Of a stretch of 64,000 nucleotides of DNA, positions 31,930 to 57,937 are shown one piece after another. The translations under genes and the position numbers were made by a program. The DNA is from Tricharina praecox (taxonomy: Eukaryota): the NCBI RefSeq assembly GCF_024521635.1, contig NW_026250403.1:496001-560000 (forward strand), written 5' to 3'. Below the pieces are notes generated by a model that worked only from the letters and a program-made list of their open reading frames with translations, did not search any database and was not told where the DNA came from. Position 1 is the first letter of the stretch, and each line of letters starts with the position of its first letter.

Positions 31930-34900
31930 AGAAATAGAGGATGAGGTAACAGTCGACAACGCGAGCACTCAATGCCTACGTGATGATATACTCGTCGGGT
32001 TGTGGTTGTAGGGATCGTGGTGAGATACGAGGACGAAGCTCAGTGGACACAGCCGCAGGATATGAAGGAAGAACACGAAGAAGACGGGACGGTCCCCATG
32101 TTATAGGTAGCTCAAGGAAGGGGCCGTATTTGCGCATCGTTGGGGAAAGATTTTACCGGAGCGGGGCCACGGCATCAAAGCCACTACGGCGGGGAAGAGG
32201 GATTGGTAGCCCTCGACGGAAGCACCTAAACCGTCGTCAGCAGCCAGCAGCCAGCAGCCAGCAGCCAGCAGCCGGTAGGCTGAGGATTATCGCATCGTCG
32301 CTACCTGAAACCGAAAAGCCATACCGTTCCTAGGGAGAGACAATATCGAGCTTGTATTCGTTCCCATTCGTGCGTAACTACCCGACAAAAAAAGCCTCCG
32401 GTCATAGCCGGGGGGAACGTGTGGTGCTGTGTTTATCTTCGTCCTAACCATGGGAGCGGCCGATAAAAAAATATTCCGGATCATGTATTTGTGCTTTGAC
32501 TACCACATGTGGTGCTTGAAGCTCATCGTCGGCGTCTGTCCAGTCCTCAACCTCGTTAGACCGAACTCCCCTCCCCCACCACCCCCCCTCCCCCCCGCGT
32601 GTACGGATATTCTTCCGTGATGTGCATTAGCAGGGATTCTGTGGGGGTGGGGCTGGTACCAAGCTAGAGGTTTCCGCTACAACGGCCATGTAGAGTAGAC
32701 GTCTGTAGACAAGTGAAGGGAGGGATCCACATGGGTCTACCGCCTCGATCGATTGTGACGCCTTCGGGTCTGCCTAGATATAGTATGGTTACTCTGGTAG
32801 ATAGACATAAATCCAAAAGTTTGCCGGAATACGTTGTTGCCGGACTAGTAAACGGCCGGTGTTCCTTCTAGAAGACGAGCCAAACAGTCCAATGAAGGGC
32901 TTCAAGATGGGATGGCCATCCGTCGTACATAGCTTCGCCGATTGCGAAAACATATAGTGAAGCAGACAATTTTCGACGCAGGTGGTTTGATTCGATGTCA
33001 ATGGCTGAGGGTATGTACATAATATGGATCTCACGAGAAAATCCCTGGGATCCAGATGACAGGCCAGGTCAAGGTTCAAACACATAGTTAGTAAGTGCCC
33101 TCCTTCGCCGGGCGCCAACCGAAATGACTCGTTTACTCAGAGTTGTAATGTCATGCAGTATCACTCGAGACCCGGCTGTCGTTGGTTATCGGATACCAGC
33201 GGGGCGGTGAGAGGTCTCATGCAAATCAAAGAATAAACCAAAAGACCAGAGCGGTGAGAGGTCGCCGCGGCGCGCATTGAACCGAAAGAAAGAAGTCTGC
33301 ATGCTTAAGTAAGTCGGATCAACCTCGGAGCTCTGCGGTCCACAGTCAACCTGATCTGCAAACATAGGCAACTGCAGAGGCCCTTGTCCGGCCCCTCGAG
33401 CCGCAAGCAAGCGTCTGGGGGTAGCCAGTATTAAAAAGCCCTTCCGGGGAATTGGCACAGTATGTGCCGGTGCGGTCGGAATGCGTATGTACCTGGGCCC
33501 CAATGTCAGCAACCGGCATGTACCATGCATGGGGAGCCCTTCCCAACCATGCAGCTGTCTTTGGAATAACCTTTATTGCGGGGCTTGTTCGGATGACGTT
33601 AGTCACGCAGCGTCGGTAACCTCGGGAAGGCAGCGCTGTTGGAACAGAGAAGTATGTGATAATCCCTATGCCTCTGCGGACGCGGACGCGGGCGCGGGAA
33701 CGAAGGACCGACTTCCGGATCCTACATTGTCCCGTGAGCTCCAAGAAGTGGGGAACGGGATGGTATCGCTCTAGTGGGGTCAGATCAGAAGTAGGTAGAA
33801 GCCTTAAGCCCCCGTAATATTTCGCATTCCGGCTAATAGAGTGGTTGCTGGGTACGCAGCTATATCAGCCAGCCGGCCCATTGTCCGTACATTTTTCCTG
33901 GATGATCGAAACGCGCAATCCCCAAGACTTTTCAGGCCAGGAGATAATCGTGTCGGAGCGAACGCGAGAGTTGGCCGCGGTTGAGGTACTGCTGCTGCGC
34001 TTGTTGCGGTGAGATCGGGTTCAAGGCGAACCCCGGTCCTGCGATGTCCGCTGCCACACATGTAACCATCAGACGATGATGGCGATGAGCTGAATAACTA
34101 TATCCCTGCGTCATTCCACAACCATGATTCTCTCACTCTTTGCGGGTCACCGTCCGAGTACCACTCACCAAGCACCATTCACCCCCACCTCATCTGATGT
34201 CTGCGTTGCGGACTCGTGAACTTCATCACCTAGGATAGAATAGATTTGAATGCAAAAGCAGAGCTATCTAAGGTCCATCTTTGATCTTGCTGCTGCTGCT
34301 GCGCTTGCTGCGGCGTGACGTTGGACTGGGTGGGTCAGCTGTGGTTCCGAACCCTGGGACTAATCTAATCACCTCATTGGAATCTCTCGACCAACCATGG
34401 CCAAGCCATATGCAACACAGTTGCGAGTTATGTTTCTGACGGCGAAGTGGCTGCAGAGTTTGCGAGCTGGATGAACATCGGTAGGCAGTTGCTTCTGTGT
34501 ATGAGGTGGTATCCGGAGAGTGTTCGAAAGGCCGTGTCCCTCCAACCACAAGGCTCAGTTACCGACCCAAGTAATGCCTCGGAGAGCGGGAATACGCTAG
34601 TTCGAGCGTTGCTGCTTGATGTTTCGGAGTTCTAACTTCTGACGTTGGGTGTCTCTCCTCTGGCGTGCAGACACGTACAGGACGAACAACATGGCGGGCC
34701 ACGGTAGAGGGCATGTGCCCCCCTGTTCCGCGCGACGAGGACCTCTGGATTCCAAATCAAACATGCTGCGGATTCACCTATTATTGGCTCCAATACAGCG
34801 TTTCTTTGAGCCTGGAAAAATACCTCGGCCGAAAGTCTTCATAGCTCCCGAGCCGGGTCCTGCGGAAGCAACGAGCCTAACCATCGGAGGAACCCAAGCG

Positions 34901-39684: not shown

Positions 39685-42600
39685 ATGGTTCAAACGAAAC
39701 TATCCTGGAGACCCAAGCCTAAGAAGTCCAAGTCTCCTGTGACTGGCAGCGACGACGATATCGTTATGACCGATTTACCTGAGAGCAGTCCCAGACCGAG
39801 AACACGAAGTGCCGCGAAGGGACGAACGGGGGGGGGTGGCGATGATGGGCGCGACCGCGGCCACGATACCCAAAACGATGATGCGGACGACGACGATATG
39901 GCCAAGGTTACGAATAAGACAAGGCTGCTGCTGGTGGCTGTAGAAGGTGAGGACAAAAATACTGCGTTATCATCTGCCCCCGGTTTCTTTTTCCCTTCGT
40001 CGTGAATTACCATCCCCCTTCGTATCTGCAGTTACTACTCATGTATCCTATCCTTCTACGTCAATCTACTAATCCATAGCATGTTATCATTCATTCGTTA
40101 TCTCCGCTTTGCGCATTTCCGATCATCTCCTTCCATTACCTTTTTGCTTCAGCTCGGAGTCATGGACTGACTTGATTCATAGTACCCAAGAAGCAACGCT
40201 CTCTCACGAACTATTTCTCTCCGAAATCATCAGGCGTCAATGTTGAGGTTCGGCCGGCACCCAAATCTCCTACTCGTCGGTCCAAAGGCAAAGGAAAGGC
40301 GGTGGCAGTGATCTCCAAGCCATCCACATCGAGGCGTCAGTCTCGGAAGAAAATCATTGTCGATTCTTCCGATGAACAGGAAGAAGATGAAGACAACGAT
40401 GATGATGATGATGATGATGAATACGTTGCTGACAAGGAGGTAGTGGAGAGCGAATTTGACGACGATGTCGAATCCGACCTTCAAGATGCGTCTGCCGAAT
40501 CAGACCTTCAAGATGGGACAGACGACGAAACCGGCGGTTCTCAGAATGAAATGCCGGCTAAGAAAGGCAAAGTCCAGACGTTGGCATCTCAGGGCGGCAA
40601 GAAGAAAAAGATGTCGTATACGTGCATTCCTAAGCCGTGTGGTATCAAGGTCGAGTCCAGGCTGGAGGATCAGCCCGGTGGTCTCCCGCCAGTATCCAAT
40701 CTGACTCTCATATTTGACGACATCATTTCGCGAGTTTTGCCATCCGTCGCCAAGTTGATGGGCCCCAATAAGCACAGGAAGTTGAGGGTCGCAACCATGT
40801 GTTCTGGAACGGAATCTCCTCTTTTGGCCCTCGGAATGTTCTCGAAAGCTATTAAGGAGAGAGGTATGGGGCATTTGGAAATCGAGCATGTCTTTTCGTG
40901 CGAGATTGAGCCGTACAAACAGGCGTATATCGAGAGGAATTTCAAGCCCCCCATCCTGTTCCGAGATATCAAGGAAATGGGAAACGAGTTCGCGTAAGTT
41001 CCTTCCCATCCCCTTCGCCTGTAATGCCATGCTGATTGACTGCAGTACGACGGCGTATGGTGCCATGGTCAAAGTACCTGGAGATGTGGACATTCTCATT
41101 GCGGGAACTTCCTGCGTGGACTTCTCCAACCTAAACAACAAACAGAAGTCTTTGGAAGAAGGCGGTGAATCCGGCGACACATTCTTGGGGATGATGCGCT
41201 GGGTTGACAAGCATCGGCCTCTCATCGTCATTCAAGAGAACGTTTGTGGTGCTGCATGGGGTGACATGAGGGAGTTCTACCACAGGTGTGACTACGATGC
41301 CGAGTATACCCGGTTCGACTCCAAAAAATACTACATCCCGCACACTCGCATGCGTGGGTACATGTTTGCGGTCAATGTACAAGGTCTCAGCATCCCCAAT
41401 AAATGGATTGATGCTGTCAAGAAGATGGAGCGCAGGTGCACAACAACCTTGGAAGCGTTTATGCTTCCAGACGACGATCCAAGGGTGTACAAAGCTCGGA
41501 TGCAACTTGCCGGTGATCCTCGTCGTACTGGCCCAATCAAGGCCCGTACTGTCGATTGGGAGAAGTGTGAGGGCCGACATCAGCGAGAACGTATCACGAA
41601 AAAGCTCGGTGATCAGCGGCCAGTAACTGCGTGGCAGGAGGGTGGAGTCTGCAAAACCCTCGATTTCATGTGGCAGGATTGGGGGAGGAAGCAGGTCGAA
41701 CGTGTCCTAGACCTAATGGACATCAATTTCCTCCTTTCCGTCCGGGATGGGTATGATCCGATGTACAAAGCGTCAGTTATCTCACCCTTCTTTCCAGAAA
41801 ACCGCTAACCTTGACCACAGAGCCTTCTGGAATCTGTCTCAAAATGTCGACCGCAACACAATGGGTGGTAAACCGGATGGGATCTCCCCATGCTTGACTC
41901 CACACATGATCGCCTACCTCTGCTACCGTGGTGGACCAATGACCGGAATCGAGGCATTGCACATGCAAGGGCTGCCTATTGACGAGCTGCTTCTTACCCG
42001 TGAAACGTCGCAGCAAATCCAGGACCTCGCAGGCAATGCGATGTCATCGACGGTTGTGGGTACGGCCATACTGTGCGCGTTGATTTTGTCGATGGAACAT
42101 TTGCAAGACCGTTCATCTGACGAGGATGCAATGGCTCTTGATGAGCCCTCGGAAATCAATAACCCCATCGTTGGTGAGGACGAGCTGGAAGAGTCCGCCA
42201 TGGATCTTTCCACAACAGATGCGCTCGAGCTGCGCGATCTCCTTGTGGACGCCGAGAAGTCGAGGCGCGTGTGTGTTTGCGAAGGACGATTTTCAATTAC
42301 CACCAATAAGATCCGTCTTTGTACAGAGTGCGGGTTTACGGCATGCGATAAGTGTGGTGGTCGTCCCAGTCATGAAGTCCCCGAAAATCAAGATCCGATC
42401 GAAAACCGTCTCCAGCCGTTGGAGTTTGAGGCAAAGCTCAAGAGCATCCTATCGATGCGTCTTCGGTTGACAGGTATCGATGATGCGACGTTTCAAAAAC
42501 TGAAGCCCGAGGACGACTCAATTCGCGACCTTGACTGGAAGATCTGGTCCGAGCTAGCCGTTGCAGCTTTCAAAGGAGAGTTCAGGTTCAAGAATCTACT

Positions 42601-45600
42601 TCGTCAGGAGACGTGGACAGTGACATACGATGCTCCAGATGCGCGTCTCGAGCTTATTCTGAACACCAAGAAGCCCGAGTGGCGCATCTTCGCGAAGTGC
42701 CCAATGACGGAAGGCATCACGAGCGAAAAGCGCCGCCTCTCCGCACGCCCGATCGCCCGAATGCTAGTGCACGGCCAGGCTGGCAAGGGTGCATTAGAAG
42801 GTCAGTGGGAATTGTGTCTTCCGGCTTTCCCGCGATTCGACATTTTGGTTCAAGGCATCGATGCAAAGGTCCCATCCTGGCAGAGCACTCTTGGATACAC
42901 GGACAGTGCGACGATGACTAGTGAAGTTTACGGTCGTCTTCGATTTACTGTACCCGACGAGCACAAGGCGAAGTTTGATCAGGATATTTCCGGCGAGTAC
43001 AAGCTCTTGCAAAATTGCGGGACTGCATTGGGTTCTCTCCACAAGAGAATTGACGATGATGGTGCGGTTCCGTTGTTTTGCTTCATTGATCAGAAGAGAA
43101 CTGGGGATGGGTCGAACGACTCGTTTGTGTTTGCATCTGATCATCGTCGACTCGGGTACGGAGAGTACCGACCTCTGACCGCCTACCTTGCTCCTACCTG
43201 GAGACAACGGGACGCAACGGCAGAACCCCGCAAAGTTGCGACCCTCATTGACGGTCAGTGGGTTCCCGTCAAAGCTCGGTTGGGTCCGCCTCCGGTCTCG
43301 CAATCCGCTAAGGACGGAATCTTGTCGGTGCCGGGGCCGGATGGCTTGAACTTCCAGATTTCCAAGGAAGACTGCGGCTCGGCACGGACCGTATTGCAGT
43401 GCAAGGTGCCACTCCGTGGTCAGGTTGAAGCCATATGGCCGAGAGGGAAATGGATTGAAGTGGACTCCATTCACGAACGTGCGACATACGAATCCCTTGC
43501 TTGGCTTACCGAGCGGGTGCGATCACTCAAGCAATTGGAACAGTGGACAACTCTGGAACTTCCCGAATGCGGTCTTGACGGCTGCAATCGTTGCGCTCCA
43601 CCGCATCCACAGCTCAAGTGGTTGTTTGTGAAGAACAAATTTAAACCCTTTGAGGATCCGCAACAGGCTGCACCGTACGAGCGAGCCTTAAAGGCACGCC
43701 CTTCCCCTTTCGTGACCCATGTCAAGCTTGACGACGGAGGCGCCGGAGTTCTCAAGATTGGGCTCAATGTGGCTACCCTAGTTCATCGAGCACTGTTTAG
43801 GATGCCAGCTGAAGTTCGTGGAGCACCTCTCCTCAGCTGGAGGCTTGTGACCGACTACATTCCGGAACCGAGGCTCCTGTTGCCATTTTACTCCCTGGCT
43901 TCCAACAAGAATGATGTGGAAGCAGAACAACCGCCAAACTTTATCACTCCATTGCGCCCAGAGCAGCTTAGATCGCTGTCTTGGATGAAAGAGCAGGAGA
44001 AAGAAGATGTCATTCCGTTCATGGAGGAAGAGGTTGCAGAAGTTTTGCTGCCTCACCTCAACTGGCGAGCGGAAGGCAAGGCGGAGCGTCCGAATTACGT
44101 CTGGGGTGGTGTCCTGGCAGATGAAGTTGGTTATGGCAAGACAGCCATCACCCTCGGTCTCATCGATTCCACACATCATAGCATCAAGCTTCCCGACAAG
44201 ATGCCCGGAGCCATCCCAATCAAGGCGACATTAGTGGTCATTCCTAGCCATCTCGCCGGGCAGTGGACAGATGAGATCAAAAAGTTCACGGGTACCCGAT
44301 ACAAGGTTATCAAGATCCTATCACAGGCAGATCTCAACAAGGTGAGTGTCAAGGAGATGATGCAGGCCGACATCGTGGTTGCTAGTGCGCCCATCTTCCA
44401 GTCGGACAAGTACATTTCGAACTTGGCGCTATTTGCTGGTACTGCGACTGCCGCAGCTGGCCAAGGAAGACGTTTTTTCGAATGGCAGAGGCAGGCTTTG
44501 GTCGATCTGGCTGTTCAGGTTGATCACATTCGTGAGATGGGTGCGGCAGGTGCTTGGGCGAGGATTGACGAAGCAAGCCGTCGCTTGGGCCGGGAAGCGA
44601 ATGAACCTGCCGAGGTGTTCGTGCAAAAAAAGCGTTTGACTGGATCTGCATATGCCAAATCCAAGGAGCAAACGGGATCGAAGCGGATGAGAAGCACTGA
44701 TGACGACGATAGTGACGTGGATTCAGTGTCTGAGGAGGGCACGTCGTCTGATCGAGCCAAAAAATCACGCCAGAGCATGATCGGCCGGGACCCCTGGAAA
44801 CTAAAGAACCACCTCGTTCAAAAAGATTGGACCCGAATGGTGACACCTCCTTTCGAGATGTTCCAATTCAACCGCTTGGTCGTCGATGAGTTCACCTATT
44901 ACAATGGGCAGATTCACGCCGGTATCATCAGCTTGAAGGCTCGATATCGTTGGGTCCTTTCTGGTACTCCCCCGCTTGACGACTTTGAAGATGTCAAGAC
45001 CATAGCCGCTTTTCTTAACATACACCTGGGAATCGAGGACGATCAAGTCGGAAAAGATCAGAATAAAAAGCGAATTCAGAAGGACATGACTGGTAAGAGC
45101 GGCCTCGCCCAGTGATATTGCTGATGCTAATTCAACTAGTTGTGGAACTATTCACGAATTTTAGAGAGATTCATTCACCGTATTGGCATACTCGGAGACA
45201 ACAAGTTGCCCAGGCGTTCCTCAATCAGTTCGTGCGTCAAAACTACGCCGAGATCGACGAGATTCCTTACCAGGAGTTCATTGTTCCGGTTAAGCTACCC
45301 GCTGCGGAGAGAGCCATCTACCTCGAGCTTGAGCACTACCTTCAAGCGTTGGACTATAATCTCAAGCGGTCCAAGCACAAGATGGACAACGATCGGGACC
45401 GTCGTCAACAGGAAGCGCTAGGTGATTCCGAAACGGCAGAAGAAGCCTTGATCAAACGTTGCTCGCACTTTGATCTTGACGGATCTCGGAGCAACGAAGA
45501 TAATGCCGTTCAGGCGTGTGATGTCATTGTCGAGGAGCGCAAGAAGCAACTTCACAGCTGTTGTGAGGACATCCGCCGCTCTCTCAAGGATGCCCTGACG

Positions 45601-46841
45601 AGATACAAGCAAATTTCGTCTAAGGAATGGCAGGCGGACACTGGAGCCCGATCGAACGACAAGCGCCCCAAGAACCTCTTCATGGAGTTTGTTGAGCAGT
45701 GTCGTACTGGCGGTGTTGGAGATCCTGACGCCAACCACGATATCAAAGCCCTTCTTGAAGAGGCATTTGCTGCTCCGAAATCCTTCAAGGTGGTCTATGC
45801 GGATGGCTCTGTCGCTGATCCGAAGATCTCCGCGAAGGAACCACCATCGGCTTCGAACAAAAAAGGCAAGAAGGCAAAAGTCAAAGTTGATGAAGCAGTG
45901 GATGAAACCCCTCTGGACACGCTGGAACGGATTGAGCAACTCAAGAGCAAGGTCATCTATCTTCGTGGGCTGGCCAGGAAGGAGCTAGCTGGTCGCCATC
46001 GATCTTTGCGATACTTCACTGTTGTCCGTGACCTTCAGAAGTCGGCCTTGCCGGGCGGCGCCGTCGTTCAAGTCACATGCCCTGGTTGTAAACGATCGGA
46101 CCTGGAACTTTCAGAAATCGCCGTCCTCTCGTCGTGCGGTCACAAAGGATGTTACGATTGCCTTCGCGAAGCCGCGCGCCTCACCCAGTGTTTGACGGAG
46201 GGCTGTCAAGCTGCCACTCGTGCATTGGCGGTTGTCAAGGCCGACTCTCTAGGCGCAGAGGACAAGCGCGACGGAATCGGACGCCACCACGGCAAGAAGC
46301 TCGAGAAAATCGTCGAATTGATCAAGAACCACATTCCAAAGAATGAAAAAGTTTTGTTGTTCATCCAATTCGGCGACCTCATGACCCGCGCTCAGAAGAT
46401 CCTGACCGCCAGTGGCATCAAGTGGGCAAGGATTGAGGGAAATTCCAAGAAGAAGTCGACTACTGTCCAGGATTTCCAGAACGACCAGGGAGAAAATAGC
46501 GCCAAGGTTATGATTCTGAACGTGACTGCCGAGAGCTCCTCCGGCTCGTAAGTATAACTGGGTTTTCTCTCATGATTGATGACACAGCTAACATTGTTAC
46601 TAGGAACTTCACTGTTGCGAACCACGCCATCTTCCTGTCGCCACTTTTGACTACGACTGATTACGAGTATCAATCGTCGGAGACACAGGCGATCGGACGT
46701 ATTCGCCGCTACGGGCAGACTCGCAAGGTTCACATCTGGCGCTTCATGTCTGAAGACACGATGGACGTCGAAATCTACGAGGGCAGGACTGGCGAGAAGC
46801 GCGACAGCGATTCCTTCAAGGCCAAGATTTACGAGGTATGA
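39685..46841 (+). CDS. DNMT5: DNMT5: C5-cytosine DNA methyltransferase fused to a SNF2 ATPase with RING insert; exons 39685-39946, 40183-40993, 41046-41771, 41821-45092, 45140-46547, 46604-46841; about 2238 aa
   Basis: Methyltransferase motifs ATMCSGTE (I), FSCEIEPYK (II), AGTSCVDFS (IV), IQENV (VI), PHTRMRGY (VIII), DLAGNAMS (X). SNF2 motifs GGVLADEVGYGKT, VVDEF, LSGTP, ETQAIGRIRRYGQ. RING CPGC...SCGHKGCYDC...C...C. All five introns keep the frame; exon 1 is the least certain. Confidence 0.95.
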
Positions 46842-47885
46842 TTTTGAAAACGAAGGGTTAGATGGGGGCGGTTTCTTTTGTTTGGGGGGAGTCCTTTTTT
46901 CTTTCTTACGAGTACGATTCATTCAGTTTTCATTTGGTAACTTTTTACATGTACGCGTTTTCTGGTTACTTAGACTAGGTAGCTCGTGTTCAAATAAGCC
47001 AGCGGGTGGAGTTCTGTCTGTCTGTTTTTTTGATTGCATTCTTTTTATACCTGTGGGTGTTTTTTGGAGCGGTTAAGCTATGGTGTATGATTGTACATAT
47101 TGGTTTGTTTGGACTTTTGGGTCAGTACATTGTAGATGATACCGTTTGTTTGAGCGTGCGGTATTTCTGGTGTTTTGGTCGGATGGTGGTGGTGGTGGTG
47201 GTAGACTGTGGTGGTGGTGGTGGTAGACTGTAGTGGTGCGGTGGTGAATAGAAGGATTCGCGGTGGCACCACCCGTAATACCCCTCCTATTATTCGGTCG
47301 TTTCAAGTGGTTGACGGTTGACCTGCTGCGCACACCACACGGGTCTACGATTACCCATCCGCCCGATTACCTACTTATCTACCCGTGTTTTCCCCCTCCA
47401 ATGCCAGCGCGGCGGCGGTAGGCTTACGGTCGAGAAGCTCGTTCTTAAGACTTGACTCTTGGGGGACGTTGGAAATTGGAAGTCCGGACGGAACGCTTGA
47501 ATCGATCCTGCAGCGATGTGCTCGCCACTGGACCGCTGGGCCGCTGGCCGTTGGTTTGAATTTCGAATCTTACAAACAACAGATAACAGACAACAGACAA
47601 CAGAGGATGCGAATCTACTCTATCTGAGTCTACCCTCTCCTAGCCGTGAAGTCACAATCACCACGAATCATTCGTCACGAAACAAGTCAAGTCCGTGTAT
47701 TTCATCATACATGGAAGTAAAAACGATCATCTCAGTTCATTTCATTTCATTCGCTATGTCCGTCATGTCATGTCCGCCTCCTCCACCGTGCACGACAAGT
47801 AGCGTAGGTATATAGAGTACAAACACGAACCAATCCACCAATTATCCAATCATCCCTTGCGTCTCAACAATCTCAAGGCTCAAGC

Positions 47886-48962
47886 CTACGCCTTCCAATC
47901 CCTCCTCATGACAGTCCTCACCGCCAACTTGGTCACGGTAGTGACACCGCCCGAAGCCGTCGCTGTGCATGGGGGCTGCGACAACGTGGGCCACTGCGTG
48001 GTCTTCCCGCCGGTGCACGCGGGGTTGAACATGCAGTAGGTGTACTCGCCGCCGCAGGTATTGGGGTAGCCGGTGCAGATCTTATCGCAGGAGGTGGTGA
48101 TGGAGGGGTTTGGGGTGGGAGTGGGAGTGCACGCCGGCAGCGAGAACGTTGGCCACTGCGTCGTCGTGCCGCCGGTGCACGCCGGGTCGGCCATGCAGTA
48201 GTTGTACAAGCCGCCGCAGGTATTGGGGTAGCCGGTGCAGATGCTATCGCAGGAGGCTGAGGAGGAGGCGGGGGTGGGGGTTGGGCTGGGCGTGCATGGT
48301 GGAGTGCTGAAGGTGGGCGATATACCGCCGTTGCAGCGCGGGTTCTCGAAACACCCGCCGTACCGGTAGCCGCATGGGTTCAGGTAGTCGACGCAGATGG
48401 TGCCGCAGGGCTCGCTGACTGTGGTGCTGGCGCTGGGTGTACAGGATGGCGTGGTGAACGTCGGCTTGATCCCGCCGTTGCATTGCGGGTCCTCGTAGCA
48501 GCCACCGTATTTCATCCCGCAGGTGTTGATGGCGTCCACGCAGATGGTGCGGCACGGCTCCGTGGTGGTGCTGCTGGTGTTGGTGCATGGTGGTGGGGTG
48601 AACGTGGGCCACGCGGTGCCGCCGGTGCACTTCGGGTCCGGGAAACAGCCTCCGTACATCGAGCCGCAGTCGTTGATGTAGTCCGCACAGATGGTTGGGC
48701 ATGGCGTGGTGGACGGGAGGATCTCGGTGATCGTTGTCGAGTTGCACGCCGGAGCGGTGAACGTGGGCCAGGCGGTGCCGCCGGTACACTTCGGATCAGC
48801 GAAGCAGCCGCCATAGGTAGAACCACACTCGTTGATGTAGTCAGCGCAGATGCTCTGGCACGAGGCGGTCATCGTGGTGATGGTGGACGGCTTGGCCTTG
48901 GTCTTGGAGGAGACGACGGCCGCGGCAGCAAAGCCGGCCGATGCGAAGAGCAGGAGAAGCAT
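47886..48962 (-). CDS. Secreted cysteine-rich protein with six copies of a ~39-aa 6-Cys module; 358 aa, intronless
   Basis: Signal peptide MLLLLFASAGFAAA. Module consensus CxxICxDxxNxCGxxYGGCxxxPxCxGG...PTFxxPxC, separated by Thr/Ser/Pro linkers. Strong GC3 codon bias. Confidence 0.9.
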   Translation of the reverse strand: MLLLLFASAGFAAAAVVSSKTKAKPSTITTMTASCQSICADYINECGSTYGGCFADPKCTGGTAWPTFTAPACNSTTITEILPSTTPCPTICADYINDCGSMYGGCFPDPKCTGGTAWPTFTPPPCTNTSSTTTEPCRTICVDAINTCGMKYGGCYEDPQCNGGIKPTFTTPSCTPSASTTVSEPCGTICVDYLNPCGYRYGGCFENPRCNGGISPTFSTPPCTPSPTPTPASSSASCDSICTGYPNTCGGLYNYCMADPACTGGTTTQWPTFSLPACTPTPTPNPSITTSCDKICTGYPNTCGGEYTYCMFNPACTGGKTTQWPTLSQPPCTATASGGVTTVTKLAVRTVMRRDWKA

Positions 48963-49090
48963 GTTTGGAGATGGGCCTCTGGGTATGAATCTGAGCGAGT
49001 GAGGAGCGGGTGATGATCAGTATGTACCGAAGGCTCCAATGTTCTAGTCACCGTGATGCTGCAGATGCAAGATGCATATGGCAGACCCTC

Positions 49091-49096
49091 TTTATA
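49091..49096 (-). promoter_or_regulatory. Putative TATA box (TATAAA) for the six-module secreted protein gene
   Basis: TATAAA on the minus strand about 130 bp upstream of the ATG. Confidence 0.45.
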
Positions 49097-49140
49097 CGCC
49101 GCCAACATACATGACCCAGTACCGCAACAGCACAATATGC

Positions 49141-49190
49141 ATCTCGGACCACCGCGGACCATCGCGGACCATCGCGGACCATCGCGGAAA
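49141..49190. repeat. 10-bp tandem repeat (ATCGCGGACC), about 5 copies, just upstream of the putative TATA box
   Basis: atctcggacc accgcggacc atcgcggacc atcgcggacc atcgcggaaa. Confidence 0.9.
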
Positions 49191-51202
49191 CGTATGTTGC
49201 CGGACCGGGGTGTCCGTGATCAATCATCAGGGTTTTGTTTGTGCAATGGTGATGGCGATGGGTTGATTGACTTCTCTTCTGTGGGGAGGTGGATGCGGGT
49301 TTACCGTTTCTCGTGATCACTGATCACTATGCGAAATGTTTGCCTCGGAGCACCAGCGGCAGCTTCTGCACGGGCAATGTAGTACAAACCCGTATATCTA
49401 ATGTATTGTTCCTGCGTCAGGTTATTGGATATATCATATATCAGGTATAGCGGGGTAGGATTCCTGGATGCCTGGAAAATAAAGTGGGTAGGGTATCCAC
49501 CGGACTTCCTCCAGGATTCGGACTTCGGCAGCGGCTCATAGTCTCATCCACCCATCTAACCGTCCAACCATGAATCTATATATAGACCGCCAATTACCGT
49601 AGTACTCAGTTCCTGTGCACTGTGCACCGCAGAACATATTAATTGGGGGGCCTCAATAAACGGTAGTTAAGCGAGGAGGTGGTCGTATGGCATGGCATGG
49701 CAATGGAGTTTCAGCAGGGCAGAGCAGGATAGCCAGCTTCAAGCAATCGATACCGGTACTATATAGTAGGTAGTATCGCATAGTACCTATAGATTCGCTT
49801 GATAGTGGCCACAAGGGGCCAGCTCGGTGGGGGTTTCAGCCCAACAGAGCAACTTCAATCGACGACGGTATTTATCTATCTACTGCTCTGGCGAAAAGGT
49901 GGCAAGCTGAGAGCTCGATGGGCCGAGCAGGTCCGCCAGTGGATGGATGCGCCCCACTCACGCCCGGCAGATGTGCTACAGATATCTAAAGACAACTTGG
50001 CACGTAGCACATAGTACACATACACAGCGGGGCAACAGTGGTTGGCCTGGAAACAAGGCAACGTCGGTTCCGGAACACTCGGAAGACGGCCGTGGTAGGA
50101 AGTTATGTATGTAGGTACTCATGTAGGTACAGTCACCGGAGTCCCCAGGGATCTGCCGGATCGATTTACCGTTGAATTTACCAAGTGCCTACATAAGTGC
50201 CTACATAAGCAAGTAAGCAGGTAATGTAGGTACCTGTCGTCTGTGTGCGCCCCGGGCCGTCGATAGCGCGATGGCGGATGGATCAGATGTGTATCTATGC
50301 ATAACAGGCGATGCGCCGTGTGACGTAATCCTGAAAGGGCCAGGCCGAGAATGAAAGGTGAGGACGCAGTTGAGGTTATATTCCACTTCGAAGAGCCATC
50401 TAACACCGGTAGGGCTCCTCTCTGCTGCCTATATCTACAACGTTGGTGCCACTAGTTACATCCGGCTAGACCGGCTGCCATATCACTCGGAACCTCCGGA
50501 TCCTGACTAACTAATCTCTCCTCCTCCCATTGTGGCAGACAACACCGTGCCATTCAAACTTAACTACTAACTACAGCCGAATGCACACCCACCCGGCAAT
50601 GGCATACCTACCGAGTACTTGCATACTCCTCGTATTCCTCGGGCCATCCTTCTCCCTTCTCGCTTCTCCCTTGGAAGAAGTTGGCCATAGGTTGCAACGG
50701 TTGCATCGAATTCAGCCTTATCCCATTACCATTCCGGACCCCCGCCTCTCTCTCTGATTCTCTCTCCCACTCTCTCGCCTCTTCTGGCGAGAGAGATGAT
50801 TACTATTCTGGTCCCATTTCAAAAAAGACCTCACAGTGGTTCAATGGACTGAGCACTCGAATGCATGTAGGCAAGTATTCGCGGTGGCTAAACCTCCATT
50901 TTTTCGCGACGAAACCATTATTATTCGAAAGCATAAAAGCATAGCACACATAAAGCATTTAAAAAAAGAAAAAACACATTCTCTCCATGATCCGATCGCG
51001 ATGCAAATAAAAGGCAAAAAAATCCAATGCAGAAAACCCCCCTCCCCTTCCGTCCGTGTCCGTCCCGTCCGTCCGAAAATTAACCCCCGCCCCGCCAGAA
51101 ATGAAACCCCGACCTGACCCCCGACTGTTCCTTGCGTGTTGTTCCGAACGTTCTAAAAGACCGTCATCGACTGATAACGATGATGACCTACTTACTTCCT
51201 AC

Positions 51203-52099
51203 TTAGTAAACGGGCGTGGTCTTGACGCTGTAGGTGGGCGTGGGCTTGCACGGCGCGGTAATGGTGGTGGTGCAGTAGACGGTGGAAACGGCGGTGGTAG
51301 TGGCGAAGCAGGTAGTCGTGGAAGTGGCAGTGGTGGTAGCGGTAGTCGTGGTGGTAGCAGTGCACGTCTTCGTGGTGGTGGCGGTGGTGGTCTTAATGGA
51401 GGTCGTCGTGGATGTCGCCGTGGTGGTCGCCGTGGTGGTGACGGGCTTCGGCGTGGTGCACGGGGTGCACACCGGCTTGTACGGGGTGGGTGTGGTCGAG
51501 CACGACGAGGACGGGACCGAGACCGGCTTGTACGAGGGCGGGGTCACCGACGGCGGGACCGAGACCGGCTTGTACGAGGGCGGGGTCACCGACGGCGGGA
51601 CCGAGACCGGTTTGTACGAGGACGGGGTGACCGATGCAGGCTTGTACGAGGACGGGGTGACCGACGGGGGCGTGGGCTTGTAGACCGAGTTCACGCTGGA
51701 CGAGGAGTAGACGGTCTCGGGGACTACCGGAGGCCTGGGCTTGCAGCCGCTGGGCTTGGGGAAGGTGGGATTGACGGGTCCTCCGCACTCCGGGGTGAGA
51801 ACGCATCCGCCGTACCATTGTCCGCAATCATCGACGAGGTCGTAGCAGATCTGCTGGTCGCACTTGGGCGGTGGAGTCGTGTACGAGGGTGGAGGGCTGG
51901 CGCGCTTGACCATGGGGCATGCCGGGACCTCGAAGATCGGCGCGGCGATTCCGGAACAGGCGGGGTCGGGGTAGCAACCGCCGTATGACATGCCGCACTC
52001 ATTGACGCCGTCCCAGCAGATTTGAGGGCAATCCTGGGGGGCCGGAAGAGCAGTGGAGAAGCCGATGCTGATGGCGGTGAGGAGAATGTATTGAAGCAT
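51203..52099 (-). CDS. Secreted protein with two 6-Cys modules, Pro/Ser/Tyr/Lys (YKP) repeats and a Thr-rich tail; 298 aa
   Basis: Signal peptide MLQYILLTAISIGFSTA. Modules CPQICWDGVNECGMSYGGCYPDPAC and CDQQICYDLVDDCGQWYGGCVLTPEC. Repeats of SVTPPSYKPVSVPP. TATAAA at 52361-52356 followed by a CT-rich leader. Confidence 0.88.
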   Translation of the reverse strand: MLQYILLTAISIGFSTALPAPQDCPQICWDGVNECGMSYGGCYPDPACSGIAAPIFEVPACPMVKRASPPPSYTTPPPKCDQQICYDLVDDCGQWYGGCVLTPECGGPVNPTFPKPSGCKPRPPVVPETVYSSSSVNSVYKPTPPSVTPSSYKPASVTPSSYKPVSVPPSVTPPSYKPVSVPPSVTPPSYKPVSVPSSSCSTTPTPYKPVCTPCTTPKPVTTTATTTATSTTTSIKTTTATTTKTCTATTTTTATTTATSTTTCFATTTAVSTVYCTTTITAPCKPTPTYSVKTTPVY

Positions 52100-53166
52100 T
52101 ATGAGTGAGGGAGAGTGATTGATTGATAGATTGATTAGGTGAGTGAGAGTGTGTGAATAGGCGGAATCGAGTGAGTAACTAGTAACCAAGTAGGTATTAT
52201 ATCAGAAGATATAAAGAAGAGGAGAAGAGGAGAAGATGATGATGAAGGAAGAAGAAGAAGAATCAGAAAGAAGAGGGAAGACAATAAATGCTGGTGTGAG
52301 TATGAGTGATTGTGAGAGGATGGGGAATCAATATTCGTCGGGGGAAACAGACGTCTTTATATCCACTTCGCTCTCCAGCGAGCCCCCACAAACAAGCAAT
52401 AGATATTTCCTCTGGCCAGGCCAATGGAGCGCAGAACGATTGCGGTGGAATTGCCTGTATCTTCCGCTACAAAAAACAGGATCTCTGCAAGGTCAGCACT
52501 GCCCTTTGCACTGTGCAGTCATCCATCGAGCACAGTCGGTCTGTACTTTGCGTGCAGTCACGAGCAGGCTGCCAGGCTGTGAAGGATGCTATTCTCAGAC
52601 CGACTTGCTTTTTGTCCGTGACTGTGGAAGCTCAGCAATCGGCGTGCATCTACCGGGATTATCAGCCCAATACACCTGCTCCACATACCGCCTGGTCCAA
52701 TAACCACCTCACTTTCACGATACTTTCCTCAAGTACCTGTACCAAACCCCGCTCTCTTCTCATCCAACAACCAATACACTCCCTCTGGAACACACTTCAG
52801 CGAGCAGTTTTCTGACTTGTACGTCGCCCGGCTTTGTCAGACTCCAGCCTCCAGGCAGCAATTGTCGGCAATACTATCCAGTTTTCGTTAAATCCCGCGT
52901 CCGAATCGATACCTGAGTCTTCGTGTGTGCATTGTGTAGATTCACGGAAGTACCTAGATCACCGGGTGACGGTTTGAATTCCCTATCGACAGCGAGGAGA
53001 CTCAGGGAGTGCCGATGTTCGAAGTCTCTAGCACGTGGAGGAGGGGGGTTGACTGGTACCAAGCAAGGCGATCCGCGCATACCTCGCCTACATAGGACAA
53101 TATGAATATGAATGGCGGAGCAAGTTTAAGCTTAGATGCGCAGCCATGGCGGTAGGTATTCCCGTA

Positions 53167-54548: not shown

Positions 54549-55466
54549 ATGATGACCACACCGGCACAATACATTTTCTCGGGCAACGACCGAAACGGCA
54601 GCCGCGACAGCAGCACCGACCACTTCAGCGTGTCGCCTCTGCCAGTCGAAATGTCGTTCGCGTTCGACCAGCCCACGTCACCCGCGAGCACAATTGTCGA
54701 CGGCGACGGCGACCGTGGTGACGACCACAACGCGATGGACTGCGACTTTGAATCGGTGCACGGAAAACTCAACGCGCTGGATCTGTCCGACACCGACATG
54801 GAGGACAGCGACAGCGACAGCAACTTTGCCACCGACAGCGCGCCGTCGTCTCCCTCCGCATCGTCCTCAGAAGGATCCGAAGGAGCCAATGACACCGACG
54901 ACATCGACGAAGACGACCCTATCCCGCCGCTCGATGATGACGAGGAGGGGGAGGGGGAGGAGGGTGCCGCGATCGCTGCTGCTACCGCATCGAGGAACAA
55001 CCCGTGGATTCCACCGCACTTCATGTCGCCCCAGTACGAGACGTGGCTGGCCGCACAAACGCCGAACATATTCTTCACGCTCAAGGTCAAGCCGTTAGTA
55101 TTGGGCTCCATGATCGCCGCGCACTCGATCCGGCTGTGGTATCGCGACTTTGCCTCGCGCGATGCGTTCCTGCAGGCTGTAGTTGACGAGTATAAGTTGC
55201 TCGATGTGACCGAGATCAGCGGGTTCGTTATCAAGGAGCGCCGCAGTAGGGCGTGGTTGGAGTTTGGCGCTGATGAGGATTCTTGGAATACTGTCCTGGA
55301 CCGCATCCGTAATCGTTACGCAGATGAGAACCTGACCGGCAGCGGGATGGCTGTGAGGGCGGAACTCAAGGTGCTCGTGGGCGGACAGGAGGAGGTGCTG
55401 TGGGGCAAGATTGTCGAAAAGGGCAAGTTCGCGAACGGCGATCTCGATGATGATCCCGACCTGTAG
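54549..55466 (+). CDS. Hypothetical protein: acidic disordered N-terminal half plus about 140-aa globular C-terminal domain (PB1/beta-grasp-like); 305 aa
   Basis: Long ORF with coding-like codon usage, first in-frame ATG at 54549, D/E/S-rich N-terminus and amphipathic patterning in the C-terminus. Confidence 0.75.
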   Translation: MMTTPAQYIFSGNDRNGSRDSSTDHFSVSPLPVEMSFAFDQPTSPASTIVDGDGDRGDDHNAMDCDFESVHGKLNALDLSDTDMEDSDSDSNFATDSAPSSPSASSSEGSEGANDTDDIDEDDPIPPLDDDEEGEGEEGAAIAAATASRNNPWIPPHFMSPQYETWLAAQTPNIFFTLKVKPLVLGSMIAAHSIRLWYRDFASRDAFLQAVVDEYKLLDVTEISGFVIKERRSRAWLEFGADEDSWNTVLDRIRNRYADENLTGSGMAVRAELKVLVGGQEEVLWGKIVEKGKFANGDLDDDPDL

Positions 55467-55711
55467 ACGTTTCATCGAGGATGAGAATGAGCAAAGCGGC
55501 TCATGACAACTTTTGTAACGATGTATGATAACGGCTTTTGGTTGGTTCGAATGGAGGTCAAGCGTGGAGTTGGATACCCCTGGGGCGTTGTTTTGGGTTT
55601 TGTAACGATTTGTTTTCTTGCTTGTTTGTGTAGCGTAGGAGGGGTATTAGTATTTTATAGCTAAAAGTAGCTAGGAAACACGGGCTCTTGAACCTCCCAT
55701 ACAGAACCCAT

Positions 55712-57937
55712 CTATTTCTTTCTCCGTCTACCCGGTCGTATGGGCTCCGGGGTGCCGTATGGATTCCACTTATATCGCTTCCTCACTGATGTAATAATGG
55801 GCTGTGGCTTCACCACCTCGCCGACAGCACTCCACCTCTCTTCCGTTCCAATCACCTGAAGCTCGACCACAATCTCTTTACATACACCACAGGAAACATC
55901 CGCATAATTTTCCGTTGCACCGTTGCGTACCTGTGAAGTCTCCCAAACCGTATACCAGCACCATTCACAGGCATGGTGTCCGCAAGGATCGTATTCCCAT
56001 CGAGCGCCGAGATGCAGGGAGTGGCATATCTGACAAGGAATTTCGGGCGGGGGTAAGGGTGCCTCCTGCGGAGAAAATGGCCTTGGACCGGGGAACATCA
56101 TATGGAGGGCCGGAGATCTTGGAATGAAGGCGGCAGACCCGATCCGTAGCGGGTTGCCTGGAATAGGGGCAAATAAGGCGGCATTTTCGTCCCCGGAAGT
56201 GATGCCCTCGCCGCCGCCGCCGAGGTTGTTGATGCCGCAGCCATTGATTTCGGGGCTAGTGCCGAGCGAAAATCGTAGCGGCGATGGCGGTGGTGGAGGT
56301 GAACCGGGTTCAAATATTGACGGAGGTGCGTAGTCAAGGGTGGGTGCGGGTGATGGGAGGAGGGGGATCACCACCGATCCTAGGCGAGGCCCTGAGTGGG
56401 GAGGGAGCCCGGAATCGGGGGCACTTCTAGACGGAGTGTCGGCCCATGTCAGGGAAGAATGTTCGTTCCTGCGCAGCTCCGCCCGCCATGCCAAGGGCGT
56501 GGCGGGCAGGTGCACTGGTGAGCTGCCCTCTGGGTAATAGTAGTCCATATTTCGGCACATACTATCAAGTTCGGGCATTTTGCTCCAGTAGTTGTCGCGC
56601 TTTTTTCGTAGCGGTCCGCTCTTTGTCCGCCTAAGCCTCGGCGCAGGAGTCTTCGGACCCGCCCTTGCAAGAGTTCCTATAGCGAATGATTTCCGTCGGC
56701 GCACATGAGACGGTGGTGGTGATGACCAGGTCGGCGATAGAGGTGGCGCATTCCAGGTTAGTTCCTCTTCTTGTTCACTGGGCGTTCTCCGGTCTGGGGG
56801 TCCTTGGAAGGCCAGAGAACTCTTGCGACGCGAACTTCTCCTGATTTGAGTGGGCGTAACGGCAGTAGCCGCAAAATATTGCACCTGCTTTCCATTCTCT
56901 GCTAGAGCCGTATCTCTCAGCCGCCTCTCCTCGTTGGCGCGGAAGGCTCGGAGACTGAGCGGCGGTGTTGCGGGCTCCGTTACATCTGTTCCTCGGTCTC
57001 CGGCCCCACCATTGGCCCCAATAGCTTCCTGCGGCACATATGCTTCTTCTTCTTCTTCATCCTCTGTTGTAACCTCAGGAAGGTCTTGATCTGCCTGAGC
57101 ATCATCTTGGACTGTAATTTCGAGCTCCACGTCAGGTTCCACCCCAACTTCTACATTAGGTTCTCTCTCGGGCTCCACCTCAGGCTCAACCATTGGTTCC
57201 GCCACTGCTTCCACGGCCTGATCCAATTCCGGTTCGTGTTCAACTGGACGCCTAAAATCTGCCCATGGTAGCCACACTCGAATAGTATCCCCATCATATA
57301 TGAGTTCCTCATCCTCCTCCTCCCAACCCTCCTTCAGCATTTCGATACTAGGAAGCACTCTCCACACTTCTGCCCTCGGCTTCCTGGAGCCAGCAACGAT
57401 CTGAGATTGGCGGGAATCACCAGGGGGTCTAGCCAAAGTGGGAACAGCCGATAAACGTGTTTTGCCGGATCGTCGCGTTCCTTGTCGTATCCCCGCGACA
57501 CGTGACCGTGACGTCGACGTCGATGGTTGGCGGCCATCTTCCACGTCTTCCCCGGAAACCCCGTCCGCCCTTGAAACGAGTACTGGCGACGATTTGGGAT
57601 CGGTATCGTTGAGCAATAGGGATTTCTCAACGCGCATTCCTCGTCGTGGTACCGGTGTCCTTCGTGATGATTGCTTGTCTTGTTGTTTGCCATGGCTGCT
57701 TTGGCGTTTCTCCTCTTCCACCACCACCACTACCACCGCCTCCTCCTCCTGCTGCTGCTGCTGCTGCATCTCCTGTACCTCCTGTACCTCTTGCACCGCC
57801 TTCTCTGCCTCTTCAACCGCCTTCCTTCGTCTTCGTCCACTCGCGTCTCGCTTCAGCCTCGATCCCTCGCACCCCCCTCTCTTCTCCCTTTGTACCGAGT
57901 CCCGGAACCGACGAGCAGAACTTAAAAGACTAGCCAT
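55712..57937 (-). CDS. Largely disordered protein with a C-terminal C3HC4 RING finger (putative E3 ubiquitin ligase); 741 aa
   Basis: Uninterrupted 741-codon ORF. CQIC-x13-CGHHACEWC-x22-CGVC fits RING-HC spacing. The rest is E/P/S/R-rich. Confidence 0.8.
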   Translation of the reverse strand: MASLLSSARRFRDSVQREKRGGCEGSRLKRDASGRRRRKAVEEAEKAVQEVQEVQEMQQQQQQEEEAVVVVVVEEEKRQSSHGKQQDKQSSRRTPVPRRGMRVEKSLLLNDTDPKSSPVLVSRADGVSGEDVEDGRQPSTSTSRSRVAGIRQGTRRSGKTRLSAVPTLARPPGDSRQSQIVAGSRKPRAEVWRVLPSIEMLKEGWEEEDEELIYDGDTIRVWLPWADFRRPVEHEPELDQAVEAVAEPMVEPEVEPEREPNVEVGVEPDVELEITVQDDAQADQDLPEVTTEDEEEEEAYVPQEAIGANGGAGDRGTDVTEPATPPLSLRAFRANEERRLRDTALAENGKQVQYFAATAVTPTQIRRSSRRKSSLAFQGPPDRRTPSEQEEELTWNAPPLSPTWSSPPPSHVRRRKSFAIGTLARAGPKTPAPRLRRTKSGPLRKKRDNYWSKMPELDSMCRNMDYYYPEGSSPVHLPATPLAWRAELRRNEHSSLTWADTPSRSAPDSGLPPHSGPRLGSVVIPLLPSPAPTLDYAPPSIFEPGSPPPPPSPLRFSLGTSPEINGCGINNLGGGGEGITSGDENAALFAPIPGNPLRIGSAAFIPRSPALHMMFPGPRPFSPQEAPLPPPEIPCQICHSLHLGARWEYDPCGHHACEWCWYTVWETSQVRNGATENYADVSCGVCKEIVVELQVIGTEERWSAVGEVVKPQPIITSVRKRYKWNPYGTPEPIRPGRRRKK

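Follow-up and report, generated by a model that had tools for sequence, protein, structure and literature searches.

The question raised by this stretch of Tricharina praecox DNA (64,000 nucleotides, positions 496,001 to 560,000 of contig NW_026250403.1, referred to in full as the window) is what kind of module is repeated in two neighbouring genes for putatively secreted proteins, here termed gene A and gene B, and what such a module might be for. A first-pass annotation had described the two genes as a tandem pair sharing a six-cysteine unit of a type that it could not assign. As set out below, we consider it very probable that the unit defines a real, expressed and unnamed module family, which is apparently undescribed, its proteins being already present in public databases without names.

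The shared module and the genes that carry it

Both genes lie on the minus strand, with 2,240 bases between the ATG of gene A and the stop codon of gene B, in agreement with the earlier description of co-oriented neighbours about 2.2 kb apart. The coding sequence of gene A (P0001; 47886-48962) is an uninterrupted, intronless open reading frame (ORF) of 358 amino acids plus stop, and that of gene B (P0002; 51203-52099) comprises 298 amino acids plus stop with no intron seen. The hydrophobic N-termini of the two proteins (MLLLLFASAGFAAAAVV in gene A and MLQYILLTAISIGFSTA in gene B) were judged by eye to be signal peptides.

Modules were located using a regular expression and then aligned, and both steps gave six copies in gene A and two in gene B, the numbers first reported. 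Each copy is about 40 residues long, with the spacing C-x3(4)-C-x6-C-x6-C-x5-C-x12-15-C, and 13 columns are invariant over the eight copies: the six cysteines together with I, G, Y, P, G, P and P. A hidden Markov model (HMM) built from the eight modules scored 61.6-73.7 bits on each of its own copies, compared with a best score of 4.4 bits elsewhere in a six-frame translation of the 64-kb window, so the pattern is not a product of chance. The motif in the first-pass annotation therefore stands in so far as all eight copies align, but several of its details do not hold throughout: in modules A5 and A6 a G replaces the D, and YNYC or YTYC replaces YGGC; in module B2 a D replaces the N and four residues separate C1 and C2; and the last gap, given as 11-15 residues, in fact measures 12-15. 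The word 'cluster' was likewise too strong for two paralogous genes with no further related gene in the window.

In gene A, Thr/Ser/Pro linkers separate the six modules, and all of the cysteines (36/36) fall inside modules. In order from the N-terminus, and again on the minus strand, these are A1 (48744-48860, residues 35-73; HMM 73.4 bits), A2 (48585-48701, residues 88-126), A3 (48441-48554, residues 137-174), A4 (48294-48407, residues 186-223) and the variant copies A5 (48129-48251, residues 238-278; TGYPN and YNYC) and A6 (47967-48089, residues 292-332; TGYPN and YTYC). None of the five linkers contains a dibasic site. Neither gene A nor gene B has a hydrophobic C-terminus of the glycosylphosphatidylinositol (GPI) type, as judged by eye from their respective ends, KLAVRTVMRRDWKA and TYSVKTTPVY.

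Gene B, by layout, runs from its N-terminus through module B1 (51917-52030, minus strand, residues 24-61; HMM 69.1 bits), a dibasic Lys65-Arg66 pair (KR; 51902-51907, minus strand) directly after it, and module B2 (51743-51862, minus strand, residues 80-119; HMM 62.4 bits), which is of a subtype with C-x4-C and ECGGP, into a region of Pro/Tyr/Lys repeats and a Thr-rich tail with seven further cysteines. A KR is found at the matching position in the gene B orthologues of three metagenomic loci described below (L001, L003 and L005), and may be a Kex2-type cleavage site. Tandem DNA repeats at 51512-51664 (minus strand) code for the Pro/Tyr/Lys-rich units, which are of the PPSVTPPSYKPVSV type: 14-residue units from a 42-bp period (2.9 copies, 96% matches), plus a period of 30 (2.5 copies). 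The L001 orthologue carries PKYEPTPKYKPT repeats at the equivalent position. Further upstream, an (AAG)n / CT-rich tract, as read on the gene strand, occupies 52214-52274, inside or just upstream of the long 5' leader of gene B.

Both genes appear to be transcribed and intronless. Six runs were matched in a run search, and contigs of four of them (X1-X4), which can be read for presence only and not for strand, level or absence, were compared with the window. The RNA status of X1 and X2, which stem from two studies, is a guess of the tool; X3 and X4, from a third study, are recorded as soil metatranscriptomes. For gene A, X1 and X2 pieces outline an approximate transcript at 47731-49047 (minus strand), collinear with the genome and without a gap, with a 5' untranslated region of 85 nt and a 3' untranslated region of at least 155 nt. 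Contigs of both runs end at 49047, with Illumina adapter beyond as a loose end, and a TATAAA box (49091-49096, minus strand) lies 44 nt upstream of this apparent transcript start; in the L001 orthologue of gene A, a TATATA lies comparably far from the ATG. Over gene B, the X1 and X2 contigs span approximately 51123-52316, and those of X3 and X4 start at 51127 and 51128 and match at 99% or better, X3 continuing beyond 52400 and X4 reaching 52015. On the 3' side, the longest contigs of X1-X4 all stop at 51123-51128, some 78 nt past the gene B stop codon. Gene A is not covered in X3 or X4, which says nothing about its being silent in soil. The spacer between the genes (48963-51202) holds the gene A promoter; it contains no module or family-matching ORF, and its part at 49113-50211 is covered by no contig of X1-X4.

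Two further observations concern these regions. A joint in an X1 contig (52135/52191, skipping 55 bases with GT..AG on the plus strand; depth 3.9, side 25) was rejected as too weak and as being on the wrong strand for gene B. In the spacer, 45-95 bp upstream of the gene A TATA box, a 10-bp unit (CATCGCGGAC on the plus strand) is repeated at 49140-49188 (4.9 copies, 92% match); this array, of which none is visible in the L001 promoter, may be a set of candidate transcription factor binding sites.

A family in Pezizomycotina and a conserved gene pair

To what family does the module belong? When the two proteins were scanned against Pfam-A (24,736 models, E up to 10), the only rows returned were DUF3515 (E 1.1) and CBP30 (E 7.3), neither of which comes near its cut-off. 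A sequence search of the PDB gave no match with the protein, and two chance rows with the eight-module profile (E 0.86 and 1.5). The first-pass annotation had named membership of a known Pfam family and a lack of expression as the outcomes that would count against it; instead, there is no Pfam match and both genes look transcribed. An exhaustive profile search of 1.84 billion representatives returned 127 clusters at E<=1e-3, 72 at E<=1e-10 and 13 at E<=1e-30. Separately, a word-based search gave 53 proteins, which, where a source gives them a name at all, are called 'hypothetical' or 'uncharacterized', bar one 'Antifreeze protein' from Seiridium. The same kind of search with residues 1-125 of gene B matched gene B alone among 27 candidates, and its orthologue was obtained from the metagenome loci.

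Every source-named member belongs to Pezizomycotina. The class was checked for Zalerion and Cryoendolithus, and for the remaining genera we assume the placement given here, which spans four classes: Pezizomycetes (Morchella, Tuber, Choiromyces, Sphaerosporella, Tirmania, Kalaharituber, Ascodesmis, Trichophaea and Ascobolus), Orbiliomycetes (Orbilia/Arthrobotrys and Dactylellina), Sordariomycetes (for example Zalerion, Podospora, Pestalotiopsis, Pyricularia and Scedosporium) and Dothideomycetes (Dissoconium, Pseudocercospora and Cryoendolithus). Beyond Pezizomycetes the usual form of the module is C-x4-5-C-x-D-x2-N-x-CG-x2-YGGC-[FY]-x2-C-x-P-WPTF-x2-PPC. Over 325 distinct modules, the D is conserved in 94%, the N in 85%, the two tail prolines in 93% and 94% and the F in 75%, figures that are inflated because the regular expression used for collection had four cysteines (C2, C3, C4 and C6) preset and allowed only a limited choice where D, G and Y stand. 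The linkers of the family (n=226; median 24 residues) are mucin-like, consisting of 29.8% T, 14.5% P and 13.6% S (T+S+P 58%), and [KR]R occurs in 12 of them. Literature searches by the locus tags of family members, or by YGGC combined with cysteine-rich, fungal or secreted, found nothing, within a scope that leaves aside supplementary tables, where members could be mentioned; nor, among the 15 of 217 Morchella and secretome papers listed, do the titles and opening lines of abstracts refer to the module.

A scan of metagenome contigs with the gene A protein identified 12 loci, and here the pair itself recurs. At L001, L003 and L005, a B-like gene encodes a signal peptide, one module, the KR, PKYEPTPKYKPT repeats and a Thr/Ala-rich tail with the end APVY. 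In L001, about 1.3 kb separates the stop codon of this gene from the downstream ATG of an A-like gene that has the same orientation and contains seven modules, so that the tandem arrangement first noticed in the window, with B upstream of A, is conserved in this metagenomic relative. The order is also B then A in L003 and L005, where the A-like gene is truncated by the contig end. Compared with their L001 counterparts, gene A shows 63% identity over 340 residues and gene B 42% over its full length, and the C-terminal ends are common to both orthologous pairs (for gene A, TKLAVRTVMRRDWKA versus TKLAVRTVRKRAWMA in L001). The flank on the B side is collinear as well (window 54608-57696 corresponds to L001 3743-667); on the A side, no match is shared with L001. 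Within the A-like gene of L001, five of the seven modules are 95-99% identical as DNA (123-128 of 129 bases), which indicates that module copy number changes fast.

Five further loci (L006, L008, L009, L010 and L011; for example L008:7752-9340) hold relatives resembling the Tuber protein, 40-45% identical to gene A, in which a short intron splits every module at a common site. In L008 the junction could be read from the DNA and lies two bases past the C4 codon, directly behind YGGC; in the other four loci the site was judged solely from mid-module ORF breaks. With an intron inside each module, an exon starts with the second half of one module, runs through the linker and ends with the first half of the following module.

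Predicted fold and comparison with known modules

To model the fold, we used AlphaFold2 on module A2 with a 56-row alignment that included the seven other window modules and 48 whole relatives fitted by MAFFT. The module alone is predicted to fold as a beta-hairpin (strands 5-11 and 17-23) with one short helix (25-28) and an extended Pro-rich tail, at a mean predicted local distance difference test score (pLDDT) of 91.3. The ESM Atlas model of gene A was poor (pLDDT 0.46); the feature matches there were to unnamed ascomycete clusters at up to 0.88, the structure matches to unrelated families at a template modelling score of about 0.5 or less, and none of them was used. The even cysteine count and the extracellular location suggest three disulfides per module. 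Across 329 distinct modules, C1 and C5 are both present in 301, C5 alone is missing in 2 and C1 alone in 6; their joint loss in the remaining 20 points to a C1-C5 disulfide. The other two pairs may be C2-C4 and C3-C6.

How does this module compare with the small cysteine-rich units already known from fungi? The earlier judgement that it cannot be assigned to CBM1, CBM18/hevein, LysM, CFEM, hydrophobin or WSC was borne out, since no Pfam match was obtained with E up to 10, a limit that applies to the family comparisons that follow. Like CBM1 (PF00734), it is a disulfide-stabilised, aromatic-bearing, repeatable unit of 30-40 residues, found in fungal extracellular proteins and set between Thr/Ser/Pro linkers. 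Unlike it, CBM1 has four cysteines and another spacing, whereas the module is predicted to combine a hairpin and helix with a long Pro-rich tail. Its identity with CBM1 was rejected because P0001 and P0002 have no PF00734 match, and because hhalign, used to compare 325 modules with 11 copies of CBM1 from the fusion proteins of the family, gave a probability of 1% over one aligned column.

The likeness to hevein (CBM18, PF00187) lies in the cysteine-rich composition, the length of about 40 residues, the predicted Gly/aromatic-rich hairpin and the short helix. Hevein itself has a Gly- and aromatic-rich hairpin and then a short helix, with eight cysteines including a CC pair. In UniRef, one Pyricularia oryzae member of the family is named 'Chitin-binding type-1 domain-containing protein'. 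At the level of sequence, this assignment was rejected too, with no PF00187 match in P0001, P0002, P0170, P0159, P0010, P0067, P0103 or P0055, the P. oryzae protein included. No hevein chain was found among the rows of a Foldseek search or the six chains that reached Z>=2 in VIA-align (both described below), but small domains score weakly in these searches, so its absence proves nothing.

CFEM, LysM, WSC and hydrophobin were likewise discarded for P0001 and P0002. The Ptu knottin family (PF08117, Toxin_30) has no match in the window proteins; on P0015 and P0071 it scored 25.3 and 28.1 bits, with no single stretch passing and profile positions 15-36 only, and on two P. oryzae members 13.3-13.8 bits against a cut-off of 24.5.

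At the level of whole proteins, the signal peptides, Thr/Ser/Pro stretches, variable repeats and Pro-Tyr-Lys motifs recall mucin-like fungal wall proteins and adhesins, plant proline-rich or extensin-type proteins and mussel foot repeats; the gene B stalk, in particular, presumably resembles the PPVYK-type repeats of plant proline-rich proteins and the AKPSYPPTYK-type repeats of mussels. In contrast to wall proteins and adhesins, there is no GPI-type C-terminus and no Pfam adhesin match, and the globular unit is new. Secreted repeats, and the conserved KR behind the first module of gene B, are also points of likeness to Kex2-processed fungal repeat proteins, from which the family differs in having dibasic sites in none of the five gene A linkers and in 12 of 226 linkers overall.

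The other genes recognised in the window are of different kinds. Just before gene A, consecutive ORFs on the plus strand at 40786-46841 encode domains of the C-5 cytosine DNA methylase (E 1e-9) and SNF2-related (E 1.6e-17) types, after which comes a further long ORF. Together they look like an SNF2-fused DNA methyltransferase gene, which we take to be of the DNMT5 type. Farther away lie genes for a CE4-type polysaccharide deacetylase (3420-4862, plus strand), a JmjC-domain protein (7993-9186, plus strand) and a GH3 glycosidase with PA14 and Fn3-like domains (29087-31975, minus strand), none of which adjoins the pair or has a visible functional link to it.

Partner domains and possible function

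Clues to what the module may do come from the domains with which it is combined. Our scan for partners covered 104 new representatives, six earlier matches and the proteins of genes A and B; there is no precomputed Pfam domain for the 19 remaining clusters of the 127. CBM1 was found in seven of the 127 (P0084, P0135, P0155, P0096, P0067, P0137 and P0087), none of which contains a catalytic domain. Among these architectures, a Cryoendolithus member combines three CBM1 copies with three modules, and an Orbilia oligospora member has three modules and a C-terminal CBM1. In P0119 from Arthrobotrys flagrans, five modules are followed by a Thr-rich linker and a beta-1,3-glucanase domain, whose matches among solved enzymes of this activity have E 2.7e-98 and 1e-87 and which we assume to be of family GH55. 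P0103 from Dactylellina bears the UniRef name 'LysM domain-containing'; the Pfam LysM model has no match in it with E up to 10.

Two more partners have no family name. In Tuberaceae (P0055 and P0181-P0183; also L002:880-2181) a beta-rich domain of about 440 residues (434 in P0055) stands behind five modules. It has no Pfam match and, at the sensitivity used, was found in Tuber and Choiromyces only, in four proteins. An AlphaFold2 model of it, from a five-row alignment, was unusable (mean pLDDT 36.1). Eight proteins from Orbiliomycetes (P0020, P0043, P0045-P0048, P0051 and P0053) have a second Cys-rich domain at the C-terminus, with a duplicated CGG..G..C....C.DDP...C......DC.G.C pattern; when P0020 and P0053 were scanned, this domain had no Pfam match at E<=0.01.

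The company of CBM1 and a glucanase, and the place of the module at the end of a Thr-rich linker before a glycoside hydrolase, lead us to favour a CBM-like role: judged by its domain company alone, the module could be a small carbohydrate- or cell-wall-binding unit, a reading to which we give somewhat less than an even chance. Each module is probably locked by three disulfides, one of them C1-C5, and the Thr/Ser/Pro linkers are probably O-glycosylated, which would make gene A a string of six beads. On the favoured reading, such a protein might bind in a hexavalent, non-catalytic way and so coat or cross-link polysaccharide at a surface, either that of a substrate or the beta-glucan/chitin wall of the fungus itself. 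In gene B, the same binding head would sit on a stalk of Pro/Tyr/Lys repeats and mucin-like sequence suited to fixation in wall or matrix, with possible cleavage at the conserved KR that follows module B1.

Several points weigh against this interpretation. In 119 of the 127 clusters there is no partner domain, so that the link to carbohydrate rests on eight or nine architectures, and appended positions of this kind also house inert spacer domains. The conserved aromatic residues, on which the first-pass annotation had founded its suggestion of a glycan-binding fold, could be structural. Fold comparisons with the 42-residue model gave no lectin or CBM: Foldseek against the PDB returned no row at E<=0.001 and 51 unrelated rows at E<=10 (best 4.2), and VIA-align found 6 of 48,161 chains at Z>=2 (best 2.5), in searches where small domains score weakly. 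The 20 modules without C1 and C5 belong to six proteins and may represent very few independent losses. Finally, with respect to expression, the bare spacer between the genes supports X1 and X2 being RNA, short of proof.

Could the module instead be a rigid, disulfide-locked structural bead without a specific ligand, part of wall or matrix glycoproteins that provide bulk, spacing, hydration or surface and are held in place by cross-links? The preponderance of clusters made up of modules and linkers only (119/127) would fit such a bead, as would the mucin-like composition of those linkers, the fast change in copy number (seven modules in L001 versus six in the window), the Pro/Tyr/Lys repeats of gene B and the odd number (seven) of extra cysteines in its tail. 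We nevertheless think it rather unlikely, since conservation at positions other than Cys and Gly, across the four classes represented, exceeds what a spacer needs, since the module precedes a glucanase and adjoins CBM1 in positions usual for binding modules, and since neither protein has a GPI-type hydrophobic C-terminus.

Less probable still is that these are bioactive peptides or interaction factors, acting as whole proteins or after release, such as defensin-like antimicrobials, protease inhibitors or effectors directed at plants or animals. The modules are small, secreted and have six cysteines, the KR directly behind B1 is conserved in the window, L001, L003 and L005, gene B is represented in soil metatranscriptomes, and there are members in plant-associated and nematode-trapping fungi, with the second Cys-rich domain in those of Orbiliomycetes. 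Release from a precursor, however, finds no dibasic site between the modules of gene A, and the rarity of [KR]R among the linkers (12/226) indicates that polyprotein processing is not the rule in the family. Furthermore, the modules lack a cationic character, saprotrophs have the family to an equal degree, a toxin or inhibitor would not be expected in fusions to CBM1 and a glucanase, and the window proteins match no defensin, knottin or inhibitor family. We therefore regard this alternative as improbable.

That the ORFs might be a gene-prediction artefact or a decaying repeat, open by chance in GC-rich repetitive DNA where, as is usual, long open stretches also occur on the opposite strand and in other frames, has next to no probability and is refuted by the 13 invariant columns over eight modules, the 127 related clusters in other genomes, the orthologous pair in synteny, whose proteins are each conserved at both ends, the transcript-like contigs bounded at a TATA-proximal start, and the confident fold.

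The favoured CBM-like reading has a more far-reaching form, which we find possible yet rather doubtful: that the module is a new carbohydrate-binding module family, specific to Pezizomycotina and with a fold unlike solved structures, that recognises a polymer of the fungal wall such as beta-1,3-glucan or chitin. If this were true, gene A would encode a hexavalent lectin that coats the wall and so cements or shields hyphae, and the CBM1 fusions would use the module to link the hyphal wall with cellulose. Fungi hold polysaccharides mainly by way of small disulfide-rich units such as CBM1, hevein and LysM, each of which now serves both as a tool and as a marker for the annotation of secretomes; the module described here appears to be another such unit. 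Naming it would turn more than 100 clusters of 'hypothetical proteins' into an annotatable family, and a ligand, if found, could add a family to CAZy and account for a class of secreted proteins, non-catalytic but abundant, of truffles, morels, nematode-trapping fungi and others.

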